A DNA stretch of 10,053 bases from a virus (lineage: Duplodnaviria > Heunggongvirae > Uroviricota > Caudoviricetes): IMG/VR virus record IMGVR_UViG_2740892213_000005; one strand, 5' to 3'. The number at the start of each line of letters is the position of its first letter. Position 1 is the first letter of the stretch. A model generated the notes under the pieces. The model ran no database searches, was not told the origin of the DNA, and was given only the letters and a program-made list of their open reading frames with translations. Of the stretch, positions 341-9,824 are shown one piece after another. A program made the position numbers and the translations under genes.

Positions 341-1717
341 TCATACGTCAGCCCCTTGTGCATATCGTCTGCCACGCGCAGCAGGTGCATTTGATGCTGT
401 GCAAATCTGTCTGGCTTCATCCTGGTCACATGCAACAAAGTGTCCGTTACAGAACCGCTGGTAAACCGTACCAAGCGAGCCAAAACGGTTTTTCGTCACG
501 ATGATTTCAGCAAATGGCGCGGCGCTACTGTTCTCGTCATATACCGCTTCCCGATAGAGCATGATGATTGAGTCTGCGTCCTGCTCAATGCTTCCTGAAT
601 CACGCAAATCTGCGTTTGTCGGGCGTTTGTTTGGTCGCTTCTCAACATCGCGCGAAAGCTGACTCAGGGAGATAACCGGTGTTTTCAGGTCTTTCGCCAT
701 CGCCTTCAGGCTTCCGGAGATGTGAGCAATTGCGAGGTCGTTGCGGTCTGCTTTCGGCTTCTCAATCAGGCCAAGATAATCCGCCATGATGAGTGAGAGG
801 TTTGGATTTTCCTGTTTGTGCCGTTCTGCGATTGAGCGTATTTCTTCGACCGATAACCGCGAGGCATCGACTACCCATACATCCAAATCTGCAAGCTGAC
901 TCATGCCGTTAGCAACACGTGCCCATCCTTCGTCATCCATCGATGCAGGATTTCGCAGCACGCTAACCGACATCCTCCCGGCGTTGGCAATGCTTCGCTC
1001 TGCAATCTGCAATGCGCTCATTTCCATTGAGAAAATCAACACTCCGCGCCGGACGTCAGAACCAGGAATAACGCGGCTTGCAACGCCTTCGGCAATCTTC
1101 AGAGCCAGTTCGGTTTTCCCCATACCAGGACGAGCAGCGATTATCACCAGGTCTTCCGCGTTCATCCCTCCGGTGATGGCGTCAAGTTCTTCGATTCCGG
1201 TCTTCAGGGTATCTGACTCTTCTCCGTTCCTCAGACGCCTGTCAAGCGTGTCAGTGTAGTCAGTAATGATTTCCCCTAACCGTACCGGTTTAACCTCGTC
1301 ACGGGGCTTTCTGATGGCTGAAAGACGCTTTACAAGTTCATCCATCGCCTGACTCGATGCGTCGATAGTTCCGCTCTGAATTGGTTCACGCATTTCATCC
1401 ATGATTTCCAGCACCAGACGACGGTGATAGTTATCCGCGACCATTCCGGCATATCCCTTCAGGTTTGCGGCACTCGGGCAGTTCTTGCTGGTCATCAGGA
1501 TTGACGTGAAATGCTCCTCTCCGCACGCCTCGGCAACCATCAGCGCGTCGATTAGGTTTCTGTTTCTCGCCTGCTTGCGGATAACCTCGAAGGCTTTCCG
1601 GTAGAGCGGAATTGAAAACGCTTCCGGCTCCAGCGTTGCAAGAACGTCACTGGCGGTTGGAGTTAATCCACCAATCAGCAGGCCACCGATAACGCTCGCT
1701 TCGATATCCTGTTTCAT
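341..1717 (-). CDS. DnaB-family replicative DNA helicase (P22 gene 12-like)
   Basis: 458 aa; N-terminal [13 protein letters not shown] motif, Walker [20 protein letters not shown], and [11 protein letters not shown] identical to the E. coli DnaB motif; ATGA start/stop overlap with the upstream O-like gene. Confidence 0.9.
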
Positions 1718-2661
1718 GCAATCCCCCTGTCTGCAAACTTCCCTTCCCGAACTCCCGTTAACGAATCTTCCCTCAGCAGGTAATCAAAATCAGCCGTCCA
1801 GCCCGTGTCGTTGTCTCCGAAGTAAAACGGCTTGGCCTGATGCACAAACGCCCTGACATACGCTCTGAAACCGTCCACGTTTGGCGTTTTCAGTTGCGGG
1901 ATGATTTTCTTCAGGCGGCGTTTGCGTTTCTCGTTGACCGCAACAGCGTGTGGCAGTCTGTCACCGACTTCGGTGTTGTAGGCGTTCAGGAATGATTCGT
2001 AGTCGATTCGTTCTGCCTTGCGACGTTCAGGTTTAACCTGCCCATCGCCTCCCCCATTGGGGGGTAGGGGGGTATTATTTATATTCTTGTTAATACCTTC
2101 TTGTTCATGATGTGCGGTTGTTTGTGCGGCCTCATGTGCGCTTTCATGTGCGGCATGTGCGCTGAAAGCCGCGCCATTACTGTCTTCGTCATGTGCGGCA
2201 TCATGTGCGGTTGTTTGTGCGGCTTCATGTGCGGGTAAATTGTCCATTTTTTGAGCATATTCATGGTAATTTGTGATGGTGATCACACGACCTTTTTGCT
2301 TCTCTCCATCAATGGAGATCATCCCCTCTTTCACAAAAACCTGAAGCATCCGCTCAACCTGATCACGGCTTGCTGGCTTGCCATGCCTGTCGCATAACTG
2401 AAGACCTAAATCAGCTGCTGTCACAACCAGTTGACCGGGTTGCAGATGCCATTCATGACCTTTGAAATTCGCTTTGTATGGCTTTCTGGCGGCATTCAGG
2501 AGAAGGTTTTCCCACAGGGTGCGAAGATAAACATCTTTCGCCCATGACTGTTTCAGAATGCTCCGGTACAACGGAATGTAACCAGTTTTCTGGTTCTCCA
2601 TCCTGTTGCTCCTGCGCTCGTGTGCGGCGCTGAAATCGTAGATTTTTGCTGTATTGCTCAT
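1714..2661 (-). CDS. O: Replication initiator, lambda O-like (P22 gene 18-like)
   Basis: N-terminus [10 protein letters not shown] resembles lambda O MTNTAKILNF; gene contains the iteron/AT-rich origin; His/Ala-rich repetitive linker is encoded by the iterons. ORF track begins at a GTG at 2664; the ATG at 2661 is preferred by homology. Confidence 0.85.
2051..2100. other. Origin-associated G/C-rich near-palindrome (CCCCCATTGGGGGGTAGGGGGG) plus AT-rich unwinding element (about 2073-2100)
   Basis: AT-rich stretch TATTATTTATATTCTTGTTAATA immediately flanks the iterons, as in lambda ori. Confidence 0.6.
2107..2234. repeat. Origin iterons: about 9 copies of TGTGCG(G/C) at 10-12 bp spacing, including two copies of a roughly 32-bp unit (around 2107-2140 and 2202-2233)
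   Basis: Direct repeats read from the sequence inside the O-like gene; in lambda the O-binding iterons also lie within O. Confidence 0.7.
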
Positions 2662-2663
2662 CA

Positions 2664-2936
2664 CTACCTGCCTTGACGAAAGACCTTAAGAACATCGTTA
2701 AACTGACTTACGGATATGTCTTCTTTGATCAGCCTTTCCAGAAATGCGTTTGGAATGAACGTATATCCCTCCTCTTTTGGTAGAGACGGGAGCAACGCCC
2801 TCGCCTCAGCCTTCAGAAGCTCAGTTCTGGCAACTTTCACAAAAGAGATTTGAGTTCTTTCATCAATGGAACGAAGGAAGCGCAAACGCTTAGCTTCTTT
2901 GTGTGTATCAGGTGGATTAAAGCCTTTGTTTCGCAT
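2664..2936 (-). CDS. Hypothetical protein (90 aa) between cII and O
   Basis: ATG with GAGGTAA Shine-Dalgarno 4 nt upstream; stop overlaps the O start (translational coupling). The track ORF 2664-3104 is the same frame extended upstream. Confidence 0.55.
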   Translation of the reverse strand: MRNKGFNPPDTHKEAKRLRFLRSIDERTQISFVKVARTELLKAEARALLPSLPKEEGYTFIPNAFLERLIKEDISVSQFNDVLKVFRQGR

Positions 2937-2941
2937 ATAAT
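2913..2941 (+). promoter_or_regulatory. Candidate pO-like promoter for an oop-like antisense RNA
   Basis: Perfect TATAAT at 2936-2941; weak -35 (TGGATT) 17 bp upstream; a terminator follows about 75 nt downstream. Confidence 0.3.
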
Positions 2942-2947
2942 TACCTC

Positions 2948-3015
2948 GTTGGATGTTGTTAAAATTCCATTTGTATTTGATCAGAACGCTCGGTCTTGCA
3001 TACCGGGCGTTTTTT
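2948..3015 (+). ncRNA. oop: Candidate oop-like antisense RNA overlapping the 3' end of cII
   Basis: Plus-strand terminator at 2987-3015 inside the minus-strand cII gene, with a TATAAT about 50 nt upstream; mirrors lambda oop geometry. Start is approximate. Confidence 0.4.
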
Positions 3016-3258
3016 ATTGGTGAGTCCATCAAGCGCATACTTAAAAGCCCTGCTAATTGGACTGATGTCTGATGCCATTCCAAAAGCACACAAGACCGAA
3101 GCAATAAATCTCCAGTCCGTTCTGCTTATCTTCGATTCATGACAGCCAATCATCTTTGCCAGACCGCGCTGGGTAAGCGTTGACAGGTTGATGAGTAAAT
3201 CTGTTTCTGCGCGATCAACGTCGCTCTGTGATAGTTTGCTGTAACTTGTTTGTTCCAT
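2959..3258 (-). CDS. cII: CII-like transcriptional activator
   Basis: 99 aa; C-terminus ...TNKKRPVCKTERSDQIQMEF matches lambda CII ...TNKKRPAATERSEQIQMEF as I recall it. Confidence 0.85.
   Translation of the reverse strand: MEQTSYSKLSQSDVDRAETDLLINLSTLTQRGLAKMIGCHESKISRTDWRFIASVLCAFGMASDISPISRAFKYALDGLTNKKRPVCKTERSDQIQMEF
2987..3015 (+). terminator. Intrinsic terminator (8-bp stem CGCTCGGT/ACCGGGCG, 7-nt loop, TTTTTT)
   Basis: Read directly from the sequence; sits antisense within cII. Confidence 0.6.
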
Positions 3259-3322
3259 TTCTTACTATTTCCATAGGTAAATAATCACTAATACTCATCT
3301 TTCGATGAGTGATTAATTAGTT

Positions 3323-3357
3323 ACCGCGTTGTCGGCGGTGCAGATTGATAAAGAGCG
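3323..3357 (-). promoter_or_regulatory. nutR: nutR: boxA CGCTCTTTA (3349-3357) and boxB ACCGCCGACAACGCGGT (3323-3339), P22 type
   Basis: Minus-strand sequence between cro and cII; boxA matches the consensus; boxB matches the P22 nutR boxB as I recall it. Confidence 0.7.
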
Positions 3358-3367
3358 GATCCGCTTA

Positions 3368-3583
3368 TTAAGCGGCTTTGTGTTCCGGTGGGAACACGTC
3401 ATCAAGACTGACTTTTGCGCCTAACTTGTTTAGGCACGCAACAAGAGCACGGCATGTTTTAAGGTCTGGGAAGCGACGACCAGATTCCCAATGTCCGATA
3501 GCTCCCTGTGTGCATCCAACCGCCTTAGCAAGTGTTGTTTGAGAGATATTCAGTGACTCTCGATATTTTCGTAGGTTGCTCAT
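3368..3583 (-). CDS. cro: Cro-like repressor (HTH, 71 aa)
   Basis: Position divergent from cI; HTH motif QTTLAKAVGCTQGAIGHWESG; GGAGGG Shine-Dalgarno upstream. The track ORF 3368-3754 is the same frame extended upstream. Confidence 0.8.
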   Translation of the reverse strand: MSNLRKYRESLNISQTTLAKAVGCTQGAIGHWESGRRFPDLKTCRALVACLNKLGAKVSLDDVFPPEHKAA

Positions 3584-3694: not shown

Positions 3695-4354
3695 ATGAAA
3701 ATGAAATGGTATGAACTGGCTAGATCCAGAATGAAAGAACTCGGCATAACTCAAGAGAAGTTAGCTGAAGAGCTTGGTATGACGCAGGGTGGAATTGGTC
3801 ACTGGTTGCGCGGATCTCGTCATCCATCTCTTGACGAGATTGGTGTGGTGTTTAAATACCTTGGTATTGATAACGTCTCATTCAACCACGACGGTACATT
3901 TTCACCTGTTGGCGAATACTCATCTGCCCCCGTTAAAAAACAATATGAGTACCCTGTTTTTTCTCATGTTCAGGCCGGGATGTTCTCGCCTGAGCTTAGA
4001 ACCTTTACCAAAGGCGATGCGGAGAGATGGGTCAGCACAACCAAAAAAGCCAGTGATTGTGCGTTTTGGCTTGAAGTTGAAGGTAATTCCATGACCGCAC
4101 CAACAGGATCCAAGCCAAGCTTTCCTGACGGGATGTTAATTCTCGTTGACCCTGAGCAGGCTGTTGAGCCAGGTGATTTCTGCATAGCCAGACTTGGTGG
4201 TGACGAGTTTACCTTCAAGAAACTGATCAGGGATAGCGGTCAGGTGTTCCTACAACCACTAAACCCGCAATATCCAATGATCCCATGCAATGATAGCTGT
4301 TCCGTAGTAGGGAAAGTTATCGCCAGCCAGTGGCCTGAAGAGACATTTAGTTAA
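3695..4354 (+). CDS. cI: CI-type prophage repressor (S24 peptidase family)
   Basis: C-terminal roughly 130 aa almost identical to the lambda cI C-terminal domain ([38 protein letters not shown]); N-terminal HTH domain differs. Start at 3695 or 3701; the track ORF begins at 3620. Confidence 0.85.
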
Positions 4355-4385
4355 CAGCCTCACCACTCTAAAACACACAACAATA

Positions 4386-4414
4386 ACCCGACCTTAGCGT
4401 CGGGTTTTCTTTTT
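4386..4414 (+). terminator. Intrinsic terminator after cI (CCCGAC-loop-GTCGGG, TTTTCTTTTT)
   Basis: Read from the sequence about 30 nt after the cI stop. Confidence 0.6.
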
Positions 4415-4479
4415 CCAAAATATAAATCAATAAAATACAAAGTGTTATAAAAAACTAACCGCATTTAGAACATTTTGTA

Positions 4480-4508
4480 TTGACTCAATAAAGTACACAT
4501 CGTACTAT
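4480..4508 (+). promoter_or_regulatory. pL: -35 TTGACT, 17-bp spacer, -10 TACTAT, with OL dyad AGTACACATCGTACT (4492-4506)
   Basis: Near-consensus sigma70 promoter about 200 nt upstream of N; operator overlaps spacer and -10. Confidence 0.6.
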
Positions 4509-4553
4509 TTAGCCATCAGCAGGAAGCTGGAAGCCAAACGGAACAGATTGGCA

Positions 4554-4588
4554 GGCTCTTTAACTTCGATGGGGCGCTGACAAAGCGC
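4554..4588 (+). promoter_or_regulatory. nutL: nutL: boxA GGCTCTTTAA (4554-4563) and boxB GCGCTGACAAAGCGC (4574-4588), P22 type
   Basis: Lies between pL and N; boxB is a 5-bp stem with GACAA loop, matching the P22 nutL boxB as I recall it. Confidence 0.75.
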
Positions 4589-4707
4589 AAACAGATACCA
4601 AACGAGATGGGTTTGGCGGTGATGTGAATTGCAGCTGCAACGACAGCAACCAGAAGATCAGCACCTGGCGCATCACCACCAAAGCCATTTCACATGAGGA
4701 AAACATC

Positions 4708-5016
4708 ATGACGGTAATCGTGTACGGAAAATCAACATTTGCAGGAAATGCCAAAACTCGCCGTCATGAGCGGCGCAGAAAGCTGGCTATCGAGCGTGAT
4801 TCCATCTGCAACATCATCGATTCGATCTTCGGCACAGACAGTGAGGAAGCTGTTCAGGAAGAACCGAGAAAGCGTTTAAGTCTTTCTGAAAAAGCAATAT
4901 CACTCGGCATCATCAGTAAATCAAATACAGATGCGAATGGCGGAAGCGTTTGTTTGCCTGAAGTTGCACTGTATGCTGCTGGTTACAGGTCAATGAAATC
5001 AATTACGGCGAGATAG
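4708..5016 (+). CDS. N: N-type transcription antiterminator (P22 gene 24-like)
   Basis: Contains the arginine-rich motif GNAKTRRHERRRKLAIER, the P22 N boxB-binding peptide; GAGGA Shine-Dalgarno upstream. The track ORF starts at 4624; the homology start is MTVIVYG. Confidence 0.85.
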   Translation: MTVIVYGKSTFAGNAKTRRHERRRKLAIERDSICNIIDSIFGTDSEEAVQEEPRKRLSLSEKAISLGIISKSNTDANGGSVCLPEVALYAAGYRSMKSITAR

Positions 5017-5018
5017 AA

Positions 5019-5285
5019 ATGACTAGCAAACAAGTATCATATAAATGCTATTGCCCTTTATGTGGAAGAAAATTCAGCGCCAAGGCAGCATGGAAGCATA
5101 TCAATGATTATCATCCAAAAGCATCAGAACGTGAGTTGATGATGATAAGAGATGTAAAACGAGAAAAAATTTCTTTCGCAACAAAGCCACTAAACGCCAA
5201 CAAAAACGCAATATTGTATCAAATGCATCGTTCAAGTGGTCCAGATTATTCTGGAGGGCTTCCATCTCTTGGAAAGAAAAAATAA
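5019..5285 (+). CDS. Small C2H2-type zinc-finger-like protein (88 aa), hypothetical
   Basis: Pattern C-x2-C-x12-H-x4-H (CPLCGRKFSAKAAWKHINDYH); starts 2 nt after the N stop. Confidence 0.6.
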   Translation: MTSKQVSYKCYCPLCGRKFSAKAAWKHINDYHPKASERELMMIRDVKREKISFATKPLNANKNAILYQMHRSSGPDYSGGLPSLGKKK

Positions 5286-5421
5286 CCACGCTCACGCTGG
5301 TTTTTAATGACATAAATAACCGTATTTACTACCGCAAGCCACGCAGTGAAATGGGTGTGACTTGTGTTGGTCGCCAGAAAATGAAATTAGGCAGCAAACC
5401 ACTTATTTGAGAGGAATTAAT

Positions 5422-6045
5422 ATGTCATCAATCCGCTTAACTACGAGAATGAAAGAGGAAATCGCTCGTAACGCTTTAATTAAGTCTGGGGTTTTCACTG
5501 AACTTGAAGAAGTAACAAAGTTAAAGAACCAGCTTGCACTTGACGCCAGAGTTATTGCGTTTGGCGGGAAAAAGAAAACCGAAGAAGTGGACCAGCTGGC
5601 ATCAAAGTTAATGGCTGCAAGTGAGGAACTTCAAAAGCTTGGATGTTCATTTTACTCATGCGATGTCAGTTCAAGTTCGATTTATCTGACTGTATCTGGA
5701 AGAAGGGTTGGCTGGCATTCATACGGAAAAGACGGCAACGGTGAAGATATATTGCTCCCTACCCCCGACAAAGATAAATGCATGTTTGACGCAGAACACA
5801 AAATAACAAAAAGGTTTGATGAAATCTGCGCATTGCAACAAAAACTTGAAGCCAGGAAAAAGGATATCGAATCAAATGTATGGGCTGCTTTGAACTCAGT
5901 CACAACAGTTAAGCGACTTATTGAGGTCTGGCCTGAAAGCAAAGAGTTGCTACCAAAAGAAGCAGATAAAGCAAGTGCAGCACTTCCTGCTTTACGGGTA
6001 GAAGATTTGAATAAGATGATTGGACTTCCTTCCGAGGCCGCATAG
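5422..6045 (+). CDS. Hypothetical protein (207 aa), accessory gene in the pL operon
   Basis: ATG with GAGAGGAA Shine-Dalgarno; the track ORF 5362-6045 is the same frame extended upstream. No family recognised. Confidence 0.65.
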   Translation: MSSIRLTTRMKEEIARNALIKSGVFTELEEVTKLKNQLALDARVIAFGGKKKTEEVDQLASKLMAASEELQKLGCSFYSCDVSSSSIYLTVSGRRVGWHSYGKDGNGEDILLPTPDKDKCMFDAEHKITKRFDEICALQQKLEARKKDIESNVWAALNSVTTVKRLIEVWPESKELLPKEADKASAALPALRVEDLNKMIGLPSEAA

Positions 6046-6060
6046 TCGGCCTTTATTTTT
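6034..6060 (+). terminator. Hairpin with T-tract overlapping the stop codon of the 207-aa gene
   Basis: AGGCCG-(6 nt loop)-CGGCCT followed by TTATTTTT. Confidence 0.5.
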
Positions 6061-6087
6061 GGCACAAACAACAGAATAAACACTGCA

Positions 6088-6119
6088 CTGTGTATTCATT
6101 CCAACGAGTGAATACACGG
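6088..6119. repeat. Perfect 9-bp inverted repeat GTGTATTCA-N10-TGAATACAC
   Basis: Read from the sequence (6090-6098 and 6109-6117); no T-tract follows. Confidence 0.6.
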
Positions 6120-6177
6120 AGCAATGTCGCTCGTAACTAAACAGGAGCCGACTTGTTCTGATTATTGGAAATCTTCT

Positions 6178-6205
6178 TTGCCCTCCAATGTGAGGGCAAT
6201 TTTTT
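6178..6205 (+). terminator. Strong intrinsic terminator (8-bp stem TTGCCCTC/GAGGGCAA, 6-nt loop, TTTTTT) immediately upstream of the next gene's RBS
   Basis: Read from the sequence; GGAGGA Shine-Dalgarno and the ATG at 6218 follow directly. Confidence 0.6.
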
Positions 6206-6217
6206 GACGGAGGATAT

Positions 6218-7186
6218 ATGAGTGAAGTAACAGATTTAGTTGTTATTGAAAAAGCAAATGCAATGACTGTATTTCAGTCTGCCGACCAGATTGAAGAAAT
6301 CCTTCAAAAGGTTGAACGTGAAGTTATGTCCTTTGTGCCTGATATCACAACGGCAAAGGGCAGAAAGGAGATCGCTTCTCTGGCGTATAAAGTTGCGCAG
6401 ACGAAAACATATCTCGATGGTCTTGGCAAAGACCTTGTTGCTGAACTGAAGGAAATTCCAAAGCTAATTGATGCTAACCGCAAGACAGTGCGCGATCGCC
6501 TTGATGAACTGAAAACCAAGGCGCGCCAGCCTCTTACTGATTATGAGGAAGAACAGGCGCGGATTAAAGCCGAAGAAGAAGCTAAGGCAGCAGCTGAAGC
6601 TCTCGCAAAGCAAATTGAGTATGACCATGAAATAGCTATTTTGATGGATCGCGAATTTGACCGCCAAAGAGAAGAGGCAAGACTCAAAGCGGAGCAGGAA
6701 AAGCGAGAGCATGAAGAACGATTAAAAAGAGAAGCTAAAGAGAAAGCCAGAGCAGAAGCCGAAGCAAAGGCAAAAGCCGAAATTGAAGCAGCAGCAAGGC
6801 GAGAAGCAGAAGCTAAGGCCGCAGCGGAACGTGCAGAGCGTGAACGCATTGAAGCCGAGCAACGAGCACAGCGCGAAGCAAAAGAGGCAGCAGAACGAGC
6901 TGAAAGAGAAAAGCAGGCAGCAATTGAAGCAGAACGCAGAAAAGCACATGAGGAGGCTGAACGAATCCGTCGCGAGGCTGAAGCAAAAGAGCAAGCCAGA
7001 ATAGCAGAAGAAAAAAGAATCAAGGACGAAGAAGAGCGTAGAGCAAAGGATAAAGCTCACCGGAAAGAAGTAAATAACAAAATACTTGCTGACCTTATCA
7101 AGGTTGGCGCATCAGAAGATGTTGCTAAAAATATCATAACAGCCATCGTAAAAGGCGAAGTATTCGCAACAAAAATAACCTACTAA
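6218..7186 (+). CDS. Hypothetical protein (322 aa) with a long E/A/K/R-rich charged helical segment
   Basis: About 100-aa N-terminal region, then a roughly 170-aa highly charged low-complexity stretch (EAEAKAKAEIEAAARREAEAKAAAERAERER...), then a short C-terminal region. GGAGGA Shine-Dalgarno. Confidence 0.75.
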   Translation: MSEVTDLVVIEKANAMTVFQSADQIEEILQKVEREVMSFVPDITTAKGRKEIASLAYKVAQTKTYLDGLGKDLVAELKEIPKLIDANRKTVRDRLDELKTKARQPLTDYEEEQARIKAEEEAKAAAEALAKQIEYDHEIAILMDREFDRQREEARLKAEQEKREHEERLKREAKEKARAEAEAKAKAEIEAAARREAEAKAAAERAERERIEAEQRAQREAKEAAERAEREKQAAIEAERRKAHEEAERIRREAEAKEQARIAEEKRIKDEEERRAKDKAHRKEVNNKILADLIKVGASEDVAKNIITAIVKGEVFATKITY

Positions 7187-7210: not shown

Positions 7211-7342
7211 ATGATTTACGCAATCGCGGGAGGCGCTCGCATGGGTGCCTTCCAATTAAATGAATCTTTACTTGAACGAATCACCCGTAAATTACGTGAC
7301 GGATGGAAAAGAGTTGAGGTCTTATTATGCGCAATGAAATAG
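7211..7342 (+). CDS. cIII: CIII-like protein (43 aa)
   Basis: Not in the ORF track (short). MIYAIAG...ESLLERITRKLRDGWKR matches the lambda CIII core as I recall it; AAGGAA Shine-Dalgarno 7 nt upstream. Confidence 0.7.
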   Translation: MIYAIAGGARMGAFQLNESLLERITRKLRDGWKRVEVLLCAMK

Positions 7343-7733: not shown

Positions 7734-8441
7734 ATGGATTTGAACAAATTCGATGAGCCATTCAGCCCTGAAGATATCGAATGGCGAATACAGCAAAGCG
7801 GTAAAACACGCGATGGCAAGGTGTGGGCTATGGTGCTGGCTTATGTCACGAACCGGGCAATCATGAAGCGCCTGGACGATGTTTGCGGCAAAGCAGGATG
7901 GCGCAATGAATACCGCGATATTCCCAACAACGGCGGAGTTGAATGCGGCATATCAATCAAGATTGATTCCGAATGGGTAACCAAATGGGATGCTGCTGAA
8001 AACACGCAGGTAGAAGCCGTCAAAGGCGGTCGTTCCGGTGCAATGAAGCGCGCTGCCGTTCAGTGGGGAATCGGTCGGTATCTGTATAACCTTGAGGAAG
8101 GTTTTGCACAAACATCTCTCGATAAAAAGCAGGGATGGCACAGGGCAAAACTCAAGGATGGAACAGGATTTTACTGGCTCCCTCCATCGCTGCCGGGATG
8201 GGCAATCCCAGCATCAGATAACAAACCATCACCAGAAAATACCAACCAGAAATCTCCATCGGTTGACTGCGAACAAATCCTGAAAGACTTCAGCGATTAT
8301 GCGTCAACAGAAACTGACAAGAAAAAACTCATCGAGCGTTATCAGCGTGACTGGCAATTAATGGCTGGCAACGAGGAGGCGCAGGCTAAATGCGTTCAGG
8401 TAATGAACATCAGAGTTAACGAACTAAAACAGGCGGCATAA
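7734..8441 (+). CDS. Single-strand annealing protein, Rad52/Sak-type
   Basis: Motif KGGRSGAMKRAAVQWGIGRYLY is typical of Rad52-like phage annealing proteins; GAGGTGA Shine-Dalgarno; stop abuts the ssb start. Confidence 0.85.
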   Translation: MDLNKFDEPFSPEDIEWRIQQSGKTRDGKVWAMVLAYVTNRAIMKRLDDVCGKAGWRNEYRDIPNNGGVECGISIKIDSEWVTKWDAAENTQVEAVKGGRSGAMKRAAVQWGIGRYLYNLEEGFAQTSLDKKQGWHRAKLKDGTGFYWLPPSLPGWAIPASDNKPSPENTNQKSPSVDCEQILKDFSDYASTETDKKKLIERYQRDWQLMAGNEEAQAKCVQVMNIRVNELKQAA

Positions 8442-8957
8442 ATGGCAAGCAGAGGCGTAAATAAGGTGATCATTATTGGTCGCCTTGGGCATGATCCAGA
8501 AATCAGATATTCACCATCAGGAACGGCATTTGCAAACCTTACCGTTGCTACGTCAGAACAATGGCGTGATAAGAAAACTGGAGAGCAAAAGGAGCAGACG
8601 GAGTGGCACCGCGTGGTAATGAGCGGGAAACTGGCAGAAATTGCCAGCGAATATCTGCGAAAAGGCTCTGAGGTTTATCTTGAAGGCAAATTGCGGACAA
8701 GAAAATGGCAGGATCAAAGCGGACAGGATCGGTTCACTACCGAAGTCATCGTGGGCGTTGGTGGAACCATGCAAATGCTTGGTGGCAAGCAAGGAGGCAA
8801 TGAACAGTCTTCACCTCAGCGAAATAATGGTCAGCAACAAAGACAGCAACCTCAGCAGCAGGGAAATCACAGCGAACCACCTATGGATTTTGACGACGAT
8901 ATCCCCTTTGCACCAGTAACTCTCCCCTTCCCTCGTCACGCTATTCACGCAATTTAA
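8442..8957 (+). CDS. ssb: Single-stranded DNA-binding protein with a 15-aa extension beyond the usual DDDIPF tip
   Basis: OB-fold N-terminus ([37 protein letters not shown]), Gly/Gln-rich linker, acidic [11 protein letters not shown] motif followed by [15 protein letters not shown]. Confidence 0.9.
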
Positions 8958-8965
8958 GGACTTAC

Positions 8966-9514
8966 ATGAATCACTTGATGGTTGACCTTGAAACAATGGG
9001 CAACGGGCCATACGCGCCAGTTATTTCTATTGGGGCGGTATTCTTTGACCCGAATACCGGAGAAACAGGAGAAGAGTTCTCGGTAAATATCTCGCTTGAA
9101 TCATCAATGCGATATCGAGCGCGTCCTGACGCTTCAACGATTTTATGGTGGCTGGAACAGAGTGAAGAAGCCAGAAAATCGCTAACCAGCAACACTCAGG
9201 AGCTTTCAACGGCTCTTTCATGGTTATCTGAATTCATCATAAAGAACGCTAACCACAAATTCGTTCAGGTTTGGGGGAATGGAGCATCATTTGACTGCGT
9301 TATTCTCCGAAACAGTTATTCGCTGACAGGGCAGCCAGTTCCATGGCAGTGGTGGAATGACCGCGACGTAAGAACAATCGTCGAGCTTGGAAAGGTAATA
9401 GGATTCAACCCTAAGCGAGATATGCCATTCAAAGGAACTCGCCACAACGCGCTTGATGATGCCATCCACCAAGCCAAATACGTTTCAGCGATCTGGAAAA
9501 AGTTAGCTAAATAA
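8966..9514 (+). CDS. DEDDh-type 3'-5' exonuclease (DnaQ-like fold)
   Basis: MVDLETMG (Exo I motif), HNALDDA (Exo III motif); AAGGA Shine-Dalgarno. Confidence 0.8.
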   Translation: MNHLMVDLETMGNGPYAPVISIGAVFFDPNTGETGEEFSVNISLESSMRYRARPDASTILWWLEQSEEARKSLTSNTQELSTALSWLSEFIIKNANHKFVQVWGNGASFDCVILRNSYSLTGQPVPWQWWNDRDVRTIVELGKVIGFNPKRDMPFKGTRHNALDDAIHQAKYVSAIWKKLAK

Positions 9515-9530
9515 TCAACAGGAGAAAAAC

Positions 9531-9824
9531 ATGCCAGCGCCTTTGTATGGTGCGGATGACGCGCGCCGCTGTTCCGGCAATTCCGTATCGGAGGTGCTGG
9601 ATAAATTCAGAAAAAACTACGACCAGATAATGTCGCTACCGCAGGAAACGAAAGAGGAAAAGGAATTTCGCCACTGTATATGGCTTGCAGAGAAAGAAGA
9701 GCGCGAGCGAATTTACCAGACATCAATCCGACCATTCCGCAAAGCCACATATACCCACTTCCCTGAAATTGACCCGCGCCTGCGTAATTACCGCTCACGC
9801 TATGGCGCTATCAGTAATGACTGA
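9531..9824 (+). CDS. Hypothetical protein (97 aa)
   Basis: ORF track; AGGAGA Shine-Dalgarno upstream. No family recognised. Confidence 0.6.

Follow-up and report, generated by a model that had tools for sequence, protein, structure and literature searches.

The 207-amino acid protein encoded at positions 5422–6045 of the 10,053-nucleotide stretch analysed here (the window), which is the early region of a lambdoid prophage of Escherichia coli, is almost certainly an intact, full-length member of the Nmad5 family (Pfam PF18757). The earlier note had taken it for an orphan that matched nothing recognisable, and this has to be corrected. A profile HMM search aligned residues 4–203 end to end with profile positions 1–206 of 206 (E 1.2e-69, 234.9 bits against a cut-off of 27), and PHROG 1965 matched with an E-value of 1.2e-81. 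The exact protein is also present in NCBI under the Nmad5 name, in a 90%-identity cluster of 2436 sequences. The gene is already catalogued and its family already named, and our analysis adds no new entity. The earlier note had set its reading against a possible confident match to a characterised family: the match is indeed confident, but the family itself is defined only computationally. The argument below refers to the following features of the window.

4480–4508, plus strand: pL-like sigma-70 promoter, presumed driver of N, the zinc-finger gene zf88 and the Nmad5 gene, a role assigned from lambdoid gene order.
4708–5016, plus strand: gene of the antiterminator N, upstream boundary of the slot (Pfam N_peptide, E 6.5e-37).
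5286–5421, plus strand: intergenic gap of 136 bp that holds the upstream recombination junctions of the cassette.
5411–5414, plus strand: Shine-Dalgarno-like GAGG, 7 nt before the ATG, as read from the sequence.
5422–6045, plus strand: gene of the Nmad5-family protein, 207 aa, with ATG at 5422 and TAG at 6043–6045.
5905–6039, plus strand: residues 162–206, the most conserved part of the family (helix and C-terminal tail).
6034–6060, plus strand: terminator-like hairpin 1 (hairpin 6034–6053) with a T-run, which overlaps the stop codon and travels with the gene.
6080–6127, plus strand: long inverted repeat with 22-nt arms, 82% complementary, without a T-run.
6178–6205, plus strand: terminator-like hairpin 2 (hairpin 6178–6199), with an 8-bp GC-rich stem and T6, the usual downstream edge of the cassette.
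7211–7342, plus strand: cIII-like ORF, downstream boundary of the slot; its counterpart in APC_JM3.2 carries the annotation cIII.

The full-length Pfam match, a pairwise dN/dS of about 0.21–0.23 among 56 distinct alleles of the window gene, which denotes purifying selection, and the integrity of close copies, 78 of 80 of which are intact at 207 aa in IMG/VR, together identify a real coding gene. One of the other two copies has a premature stop and one encodes 204 aa. Loss of the frame in close relatives, which the earlier note would have taken as a sign of decay, is thus rare if the truncation in Stx2a phages described below is set aside. Across the 56 alleles the C-terminal third of the protein is nearly invariant. 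The frame itself, the motif GCSFYSCDVSSSS and the K/E-rich helix were all found as previously described. A longer version of the protein with a TTG start at 5362 is unlikely, because the N-termini of homologues read MSSxRLT or MxRLT. An antisense ORF of 133 aa (5682–6083) was considered as a sieB-like gene and rejected, as homology and selection signals all lie on the plus strand.

Among complete E. coli genomes, 211 of 5426 (3.9%) carry a gene with the RefSeq/PGAP name "Nmad5 family putative nucleotide modification protein". The window gene is 100% identical in E. coli strain D1, and copies with 93–94% identity are found in mEp235, HK542, HK244, Kapi1, the PhiR12 series and Stx1a-converting phages. 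The mEp235 copy lies just downstream of N, and the matches in HK542, HK244 and PhiR12 overlap the N gene as well. On a larger scale, a profile search over 1.84 billion representative sequences returned 2650 Nmad5 clusters at 50% identity, and nearly all of the best 150 of these are about 200 aa long. The homologues among the matches listed are all single-domain proteins, mostly of about 180–230 aa and without fusions. All 41 diverse homologues scanned matched PF18757 only, and a relaxed Pfam scan of these 41 members gave no consistent second family; an NCBIfam scan of the window protein returned nothing above chance. Like the proteins of PF18757 and PHROG 1965, the window protein is phage- or prophage-borne, single-domain and about 200 aa long, with an N-terminal RLT and the C-terminal signatures WPE..EL.P and LPA..LN..IGLP; it stands alone as a 207-aa protein in the lambdoid early region. 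It contains all family-wide motifs, which are 83–100% conserved among 143 diverse members. These are R-L-T, the G48-G49 turn and G93 in the N-terminal and core part, followed by T162..L166..W170-P171-E172..E175-L176-x-P178 and L188-P189..L196-N197..G201-L202-P203 in the C-terminal part.

The position between N and cIII that the earlier note had assigned to the gene is confirmed by both boundaries. The ORF at 7211–7342 contains the motif ESLLERITRKLRDGWKR, which we take to be lambda CIII-like, and is followed by kil (Pfam Lambda_Kil). Within the slot, the Nmad5 gene is flanked by an 88-aa zinc-finger ORF (zf88) upstream and by a 322-aa coiled-coil ORF downstream. A Pfam scan of eight window ORFs gave hits for N, Kil and Nmad5, for a Rad52-like annealase and for an Rv2179c-like exonuclease, and for nothing else; a further ORF was recognised as an SSB by its sequence, in agreement with the mEp235 annotation.

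The gene had also been proposed to form a discrete, exchangeable cassette, and the breakpoints of homology, the changing neighbours and an alternative occupant of the slot all agree with this. In 74 of 80 close loci the upstream breakpoint falls at 5300–5420. Downstream, homology ends at 6060–6100, after hairpin 1, in 15 of the 80 loci and at 6200–6240, after the second terminator, in 49. Because homology breaks in the gap and behind the hairpins, the mobile unit consists of the gene together with its 3' hairpins. When the gene content of the slot is compared between related phages, occupants and neighbours vary: on the upstream side the zinc-finger gene may be present, be replaced by another gene of 110 aa or be missing without replacement, and on the downstream side there is the 322-aa gene or, as in mEp235, cIII directly. 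The same allele group is combined with Rad52-like, Erf, Sak4 or Red/Gam recombination modules. In a lambda-like phage whose N gene agrees with this allele in its 5' part, the slot is filled by ea10 and a sieB-like exclusion gene, and in phiKp_30, which has a near-identical N-zf88 segment, neither Nmad5 nor the 322-aa gene is annotated. In one Stx2a-converting phage, two opposite-strand transposase-like ORFs, presumably IS3-family-like, abut the gene at about codon 34, and a 152-aa remnant is left. Altogether 48 records of Stx2a-converting phages match, and those listed match residues 34/36–207 only. Since the transposase-like ORFs leave a truncated copy, the gene is dispensable for those Stx2a prophages.

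The 136-bp gap, which follows from the end of the preceding ORF at 5285, and the two downstream hairpins are likewise as first described, and the inverted repeat at 6080–6127 adds a third structure between them. The stretch 6025–6215 folds far better than shuffled sequence (z = -5.97); an Rfam scan of the window found no RNA family. No sigma-70-like promoter was found in the gap at 5286–5421, and from this we infer that the Nmad5 gene is transcribed from pL. A weak bulged hairpin with T5 lies in the gap just past the zf88 stop codon and bears on immediate-early co-transcription of Nmad5 with N.

Two AlphaFold2 models, computed with 30 and 97 sequences, agree with each other (mean pLDDT 84.7 and 87.1). 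The predicted core is confident, with pLDDT above 90 for residues 11–170, and the last 25 residues are predicted to be disordered, with pLDDT below 50 in both models. In the predicted alpha+beta fold, the N-terminal RLT strand joins a small beta-sheet (residues 83–122), which packs on three long helices (8–72) and a fourth one (127–158); a small helical C-terminal unit would follow at 163–186. A search of the predicted fold against the PDB returned no similar chain, no known transferase, kinase or glycosylase matched, and the matches in BFVD were only other Nmad5 or uncharacterised phage proteins. Nmad5 belongs to the larger phage families that have a confidently predicted but structurally unmatched fold.

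Conservation is strongest in the conserved helix, T162-x-K164-R165-L166...W170-P171-E172..E175-L176-x-P178, and in the tail, L188-P189-A...L196-N197..G201-L202-P203. Among 143 diverse members, N197 is conserved in 100%, L166, W170 and P178 in 99%, L196 in 98%, A18, P171, E172 and L176 in 97%, G48 and G93 in 96%, and I14, R43, T162 and G201 in 93%, and H126 in only 51%. The positions that are at least 88% conserved (143–194 diverse members) consist largely of hydrophobic residues, Gly and Pro, to which R5, R43, T162, E172, E175 and N197 are added; conserved residues of a catalytic type were not found in these 143–194 proteins, and Cys is not conserved. The Cys/Ser-rich region that had been pointed out as a notable feature is a variable loop and not a conserved site, and because the patch is not conserved, we rejected its reading as a metal site. 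Nmad5 proteins have a near-neutral pI (median 7.8). The strongest conservation falls in a C-terminal helix and a predicted disordered tail, and such a pattern is the signature expected of an interaction surface rather than of an active site.

A single published genetic link ties Nmad5 to bacterial immunity. Dhillonvirus escapers of Tmn, a KAP NTPase, carry the nmad5 mutations K216E (SM_A8) or K296E (SM_S22), and reverting the Lys-to-Glu change brings back Tmn sensitivity (Yamashita et al. 2025, PMC11846954). Deletion of nmad5 gives no escape from Tmn, the Dhillonvirus deletion mutants are viable, and the wild-type gene was uncloneable, with apparent toxicity (PMC11846954). In our analysis, SM_S22 CDS6 is annotated 80 residues too long: its Nmad5 domain starts at M81 (MRLTK), with a promoter-like site just upstream. 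K296 of SM_S22 is therefore K216 of a 254-aa protein and thus the same position as in SM_A8. This lysine aligns with R165 of the window protein, in the conserved T-x-K-[K/R]-L...WPE helix. The SM_S22 gene lies on the opposite strand and has its own sigma-70-like promoter and terminator. In the literature, we found no functional data on the Nmad5 family beyond PMC11846954, no biochemical assay of any member, and nothing on the Nmad5 gene in work mentioning mEp235 or HK542. The "NMAD" domain of a validated DefensePredictor defence system is Nmad2 (PF18753), not Nmad5, and was set aside as irrelevant.

That the gene encodes an accessory factor, perhaps for anti-defence or host takeover, is a reasonable reading. 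Tentatively, we favour the more specific possibility of a non-enzymatic, partner-binding early accessory protein that acts on host DNA-processing or infection-sensing factors. The protein would be made early in lytic growth and would not be a base-modification enzyme here. A rigid alpha+beta core might present the conserved basic helix (T162-x-K164-R165-L166...WPE) and the flexible tail (LPA....LN..IGLP), and both could bind a widely conserved host protein, of DNA processing or infection sensing, or a nucleoprotein intermediate. Such binding may dampen the response of a host nuclease, of repair or of abortive infection, and the early DNA metabolism of the phage would thereby be shielded. In favour of this proposal we count that the gene is found in hot spots or as a moron, in virulent phages as well, that it can be lost, that it seems toxic when cloned and that the Tmn result resembles a gain of function; furthermore, the cassette is independent of its neighbours, conservation is not of a catalytic type, and a confident core carries a flexible tail. 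Against it speaks that the Tmn result comes from a 254-aa relative with about 30% identity and could also reflect sensing of Nmad5 or of its product. In addition, the window protein gave only chance-level PADLOC matches (MTase_II, E 0.039, 10.7 bits), matched none of the known anti-defence proteins and was absent from two published phage accessory-gene screens searched by protein sequence. Even without conserved catalytic-looking residues, the protein might act catalytically together with a partner.

The most serious alternative comes from the genes that surround Nmad5 in other phages, which we surveyed in 76 diverse IMG/VR loci (31 groups at 80% identity) as well as in metagenomic contigs and annotated phages. 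In 10–11 of the 31 groups, Nmad5 lies between an Enc34-type SSB (PF10991) and DNA polymerase A, and a DUF2800 nuclease occupies position -2; in 26 of the 30 members of its gene cluster, the SSB is found at offset -1. Elsewhere the gene stands between an Rv2179c-like exonuclease and a dNMP kinase with overlapping stop and start codons, follows ThyX and precedes a PD-(D/E)XK nuclease, primase and Sak4 in N4-like phages (one contig of this context has a tandem Nmad5 duplication), or is placed between Sak4 with DUF669 and a DEAD helicase. Some Nmad5 genes are near dGTP diphosphohydrolase and dUTPase, MazG is among the neighbours of others, and in an Aeromonas prophage Nmad5 heads the early operon before Dam and C5 methyltransferases. 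Nmad5 could thus assist the phage itself in replication or recombination by binding SSB, exonuclease, annealase or polymerase, of phage or host, or a DNA intermediate. The recurrence of SSB, DNA polymerase A, exonuclease, dNMP kinase, ThyX, Sak4 and helicase, together with the Rad52-like annealase, SSB and Rv2179c-like exonuclease of the window operon itself, argues for such a helper. This frequent embedding among replication, recombination and nucleotide-metabolism genes also counts against our proposal, as a part in the phage's own DNA metabolism would explain it at least as well as action against the host.

Against a helper, close alleles pair with four unrelated recombinase types and keep no constant partner. 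No conserved partner gene emerged across the Nmad5 contexts, downstream or otherwise; genes of 316–338 aa downstream of Nmad5 elsewhere were tried as a candidate and are unrelated to the 322-aa gene of the window. In other phages Nmad5 is an isolated moron among structural genes: in the Vibrio phages P23 and VchM-138 it sits on the opposite strand inside head or tail operons, in Dhillonvirus SM_S22 it is likewise on the opposite strand, and in Pseudomonas phage ZRG1 it lies between terminase and portal; in Salmonella phage SPN3UB it is found in the nin region. Moreover, lambdoid phages and Dhillonvirus tolerate its loss, and most lambdoid phages are without the gene, which fits its low frequency in E. 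coli. On balance we regard a helper function as somewhat unlikely.

The family name suggests a different alternative. Nmad5 stands for nucleotide modification associated domain 5, which PMC11846954 credits to Iyer et al. 2013 (NAR 41:7635), and the name derives from neighbourhoods of the YuA/M6 type with modification enzymes. In YuA/M6-like Pseudomonas phages, Nmad5 (gp15) directly follows a 5-hmdU DNA kinase (gp13, PF18748) and a helical-domain protein (gp14, PF18723) and precedes a dUMP hydroxymethylase, within a thymidine-hypermodification cluster (PMC9476957). Nmad5 might accordingly be a true component of base modification, such as a subunit that lends specificity or a scaffold to thymidine hypermodification or to another modification of phage DNA, and the adjacency of other members to ThyX, dNMP kinase, MazG, dUTPase, dGTP diphosphohydrolase and Dam or C5 methyltransferases could be read in the same way. 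For the window clade we consider this improbable. With YuA gp11, gp12, gp13, gp14 and gp17 as tblastn queries, neither the window nor any of 159 related loci, each taken with 6-kb flanks, gave a homologue; the kinase, the HMUDK helical protein, the hydroxymethylase and the radical-SAM and PLP enzymes of YuA have no counterpart there. Pfam domains of base-modification enzymes were likewise missing from the eight window ORFs scanned, and mEp235 (37.6 kb), with its standard lambdoid early region, has no modification genes within 4 kb of its Nmad5 gene. The family is also without conserved catalytic-type residues, and its predicted fold resembles no known transferase, kinase or glycosylase. The neighbourhood of base-modification enzymes from which PF18757 takes its name is thus found neither in the window nor at any of the 159 loci, and the label "nucleotide modification" is probably misleading for this clade. 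The annotation "putative nucleotide modification protein", carried by thousands of entries, is without gene-context support here.

Finally, a prophage defence or superinfection-exclusion gene that benefits the lysogen, like lambda sieB or rexAB, could be imagined from the sieB-like gene in the slot of the phage with part of the same N allele, from the cassette's own terminators and from moron-like placement in several temperate phages, but this is highly improbable: on the pL-transcribed strand and without a promoter-like site in the gap, the gene should be silent in the lysogen, no PADLOC defence model matches, and virulent phages carry Nmad5 as well, namely the N4-like Schitoviridae and Dhillonvirus.

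Returning to the proposed partner-binding protein, we may speculate that the same holds for the whole family. Nmad5 proteins would then be widespread non-enzymatic phage effectors with a fold new to the PDB and a name that is a misnomer for most of them; the K/R165 helix and the LPA..LN..IGLP tail would make contact with a host sensor or DNA-processing protein that is conserved universally, and abortive-infection proteins of the Tmn type (KAP NTPases) would be one target. In this general form the idea is unlikely. If it were true, the cassette in the window prophage would be an early anti-defence gene. mEp235 and HK542 are tractable K-12 phages that carry the window-type allele and provide a simple system for the function of the family.

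Among known systems, other Nmad5 proteins are found in settings that differ from that of the window protein. YuA gp15 is of the same family and 45% identical over its C-terminal 87 residues; at 186 aa it lies beside a 5-hmdU DNA kinase and a dUMP hydroxymethylase, whereas the window is without such genes. The Dhillonvirus protein (SM_S22 CDS6, SM_A8 CDS7) also belongs to PF18757 (E 4.5e-56), and both genes are dispensable accessory genes with their own terminator. It is, however, only about 30% identical to the window protein and longer, at 254 aa, and its beta region contains a large insertion. Its gene, which has a promoter-like site of its own, is flanked by lysis genes on one side and head genes on the other, while the window gene is part of the pL operon.

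Lambda ral and sieB and genes of the P22 gene 17 type occupy the same slot as the window gene and are, like it, mosaic, exchangeable and non-essential. There is no sequence relationship with Ral or SieB, as Pfam and PHROGs return only Nmad5 and PHROG 1965 and PADLOC stays at chance level, and sieB, unlike the window gene, lies on the opposite strand. Lambda Gam and P22 Abc2 are small non-enzymatic inhibitors of RecBCD that are encoded beside phage recombination genes. The analogy to Nmad5 is a functional one only: common to them are small size, early expression, dispensability, a probable lack of catalysis, a gene close to those for recombination and toxicity of the cloned gene, and no similarity in sequence or fold to the window protein was found. 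Nmad5 is found together with Gam in some phages and with an Abc2-like gene in others, which makes a duplication of their function unlikely.

Two homologues of Nmad5 concern database annotation:

SM_S22 (Dhillonvirus) 5005-6009, minus strand: published 'nmad5' CDS6, 334 aa
Phage APC_JM3.2 2947-3570: Nmad5 homologue labelled 'Smchd1'

Judged from its sequence, the SM_S22 CDS6 annotation seems to be 80 codons too long. As annotated, CDS6 overlaps the oppositely oriented scaffolding gene; its Nmad5 domain begins at M81, and a sigma-70-like site is located just upstream of this codon. The N-terminal truncation reported for SM_A8 is probably an annotation difference, which accounts for K296 in SM_S22 and K216 in SM_A8, the positions of the Tmn escape changes K296E and K216E (PMC11846954), being one residue. 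In APC_JM3.2, the name 'Smchd1' was apparently propagated from a UniProt entry and is misleading for this Nmad5 homologue.

A broken Nmad5 copy was found in an Stx2a phage. In Stx2_PV12-16 the gene is adjoined at about codon 34 by transposase-like ORFs, which are probably IS3-family/IS629-like, leaving a 152-aa remnant with a GTG start:

Stx2_PV12-16 1238-3025, strand opposite Nmad5: pair of transposase-like ORFs (108 aa, 296 aa)

Nmad5 matches occur in 48 Stx2a-phage records, and among the matches listed only residues 34/36-207 were covered. Furthermore, one cluster comprises 232 proteins of 152 aa, which seem to represent this remnant as well.

Two copies of Nmad5, with overlapping stop and start codons, are present on an N4-like metagenomic contig:

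N4-like contig 3913-4518 and 4515-5117: Nmad5 genes in tandem (201 aa, 200 aa)

ThyX lies on one side of the pair and a 326-aa protein on the other; the homologue of this protein from phage FSL SP-058 matches the PD-(D/E)XK nuclease family.

In the window, Nmad5 has the following neighbors:

5019-5285, plus strand: zf88, 88-aa ORF beginning 3 nt past the N stop codon
6080-6127, plus strand: inverted repeat, 22-nt arms, without T-run
6218-7186, plus strand: gene of a 322-aa protein with PHROG matches
7734-9824, plus strand: recombination module of Rad52-like annealase, SSB, Rv2179c-like 3'-5' exonuclease, then a 97-aa ORF

The zf88 protein features a eukaryote-style, C2H2-like zinc-finger motif (YKCYCPLCGRKF...HINDYH), with weak Pfam matches (zf-Di19, zf-C2H2 and similar models) and assignment to PHROG 20899, a family of unknown function. 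Only part of the Nmad5-bearing phages carry zf88, and the N-zf88 segment is 99.7% identical in Klebsiella phage phiKp_30. Downstream of Nmad5, the intergenic plus strand at 6025-6215 is unusually structured (z = -5.97) and contains two terminator-like hairpins; the inverted repeat had no Rfam match.

The 322-aa protein has a very long central coiled coil rich in Glu, Lys, Ala and Arg. It gave no match in a Pfam scan and matches PHROGs 1376, 21365 and 17211, all families of unknown function; in APC_JM3.2 it is annotated 'TolA-like'. Whether its gene is present does not depend on Nmad5, and the protein is unrelated to the products of genes downstream of Nmad5 in other phages.

Red and Gam are absent from the recombination module. 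In unrelated metagenomic phages (L175-L177), the gene directly before Nmad5 encodes an exonuclease of this Rv2179c-like family, and the mEp235 record shows, at the position equivalent to the 97-aa ORF, an ORF of similar size with the note 'anti-RecBCD 2'.
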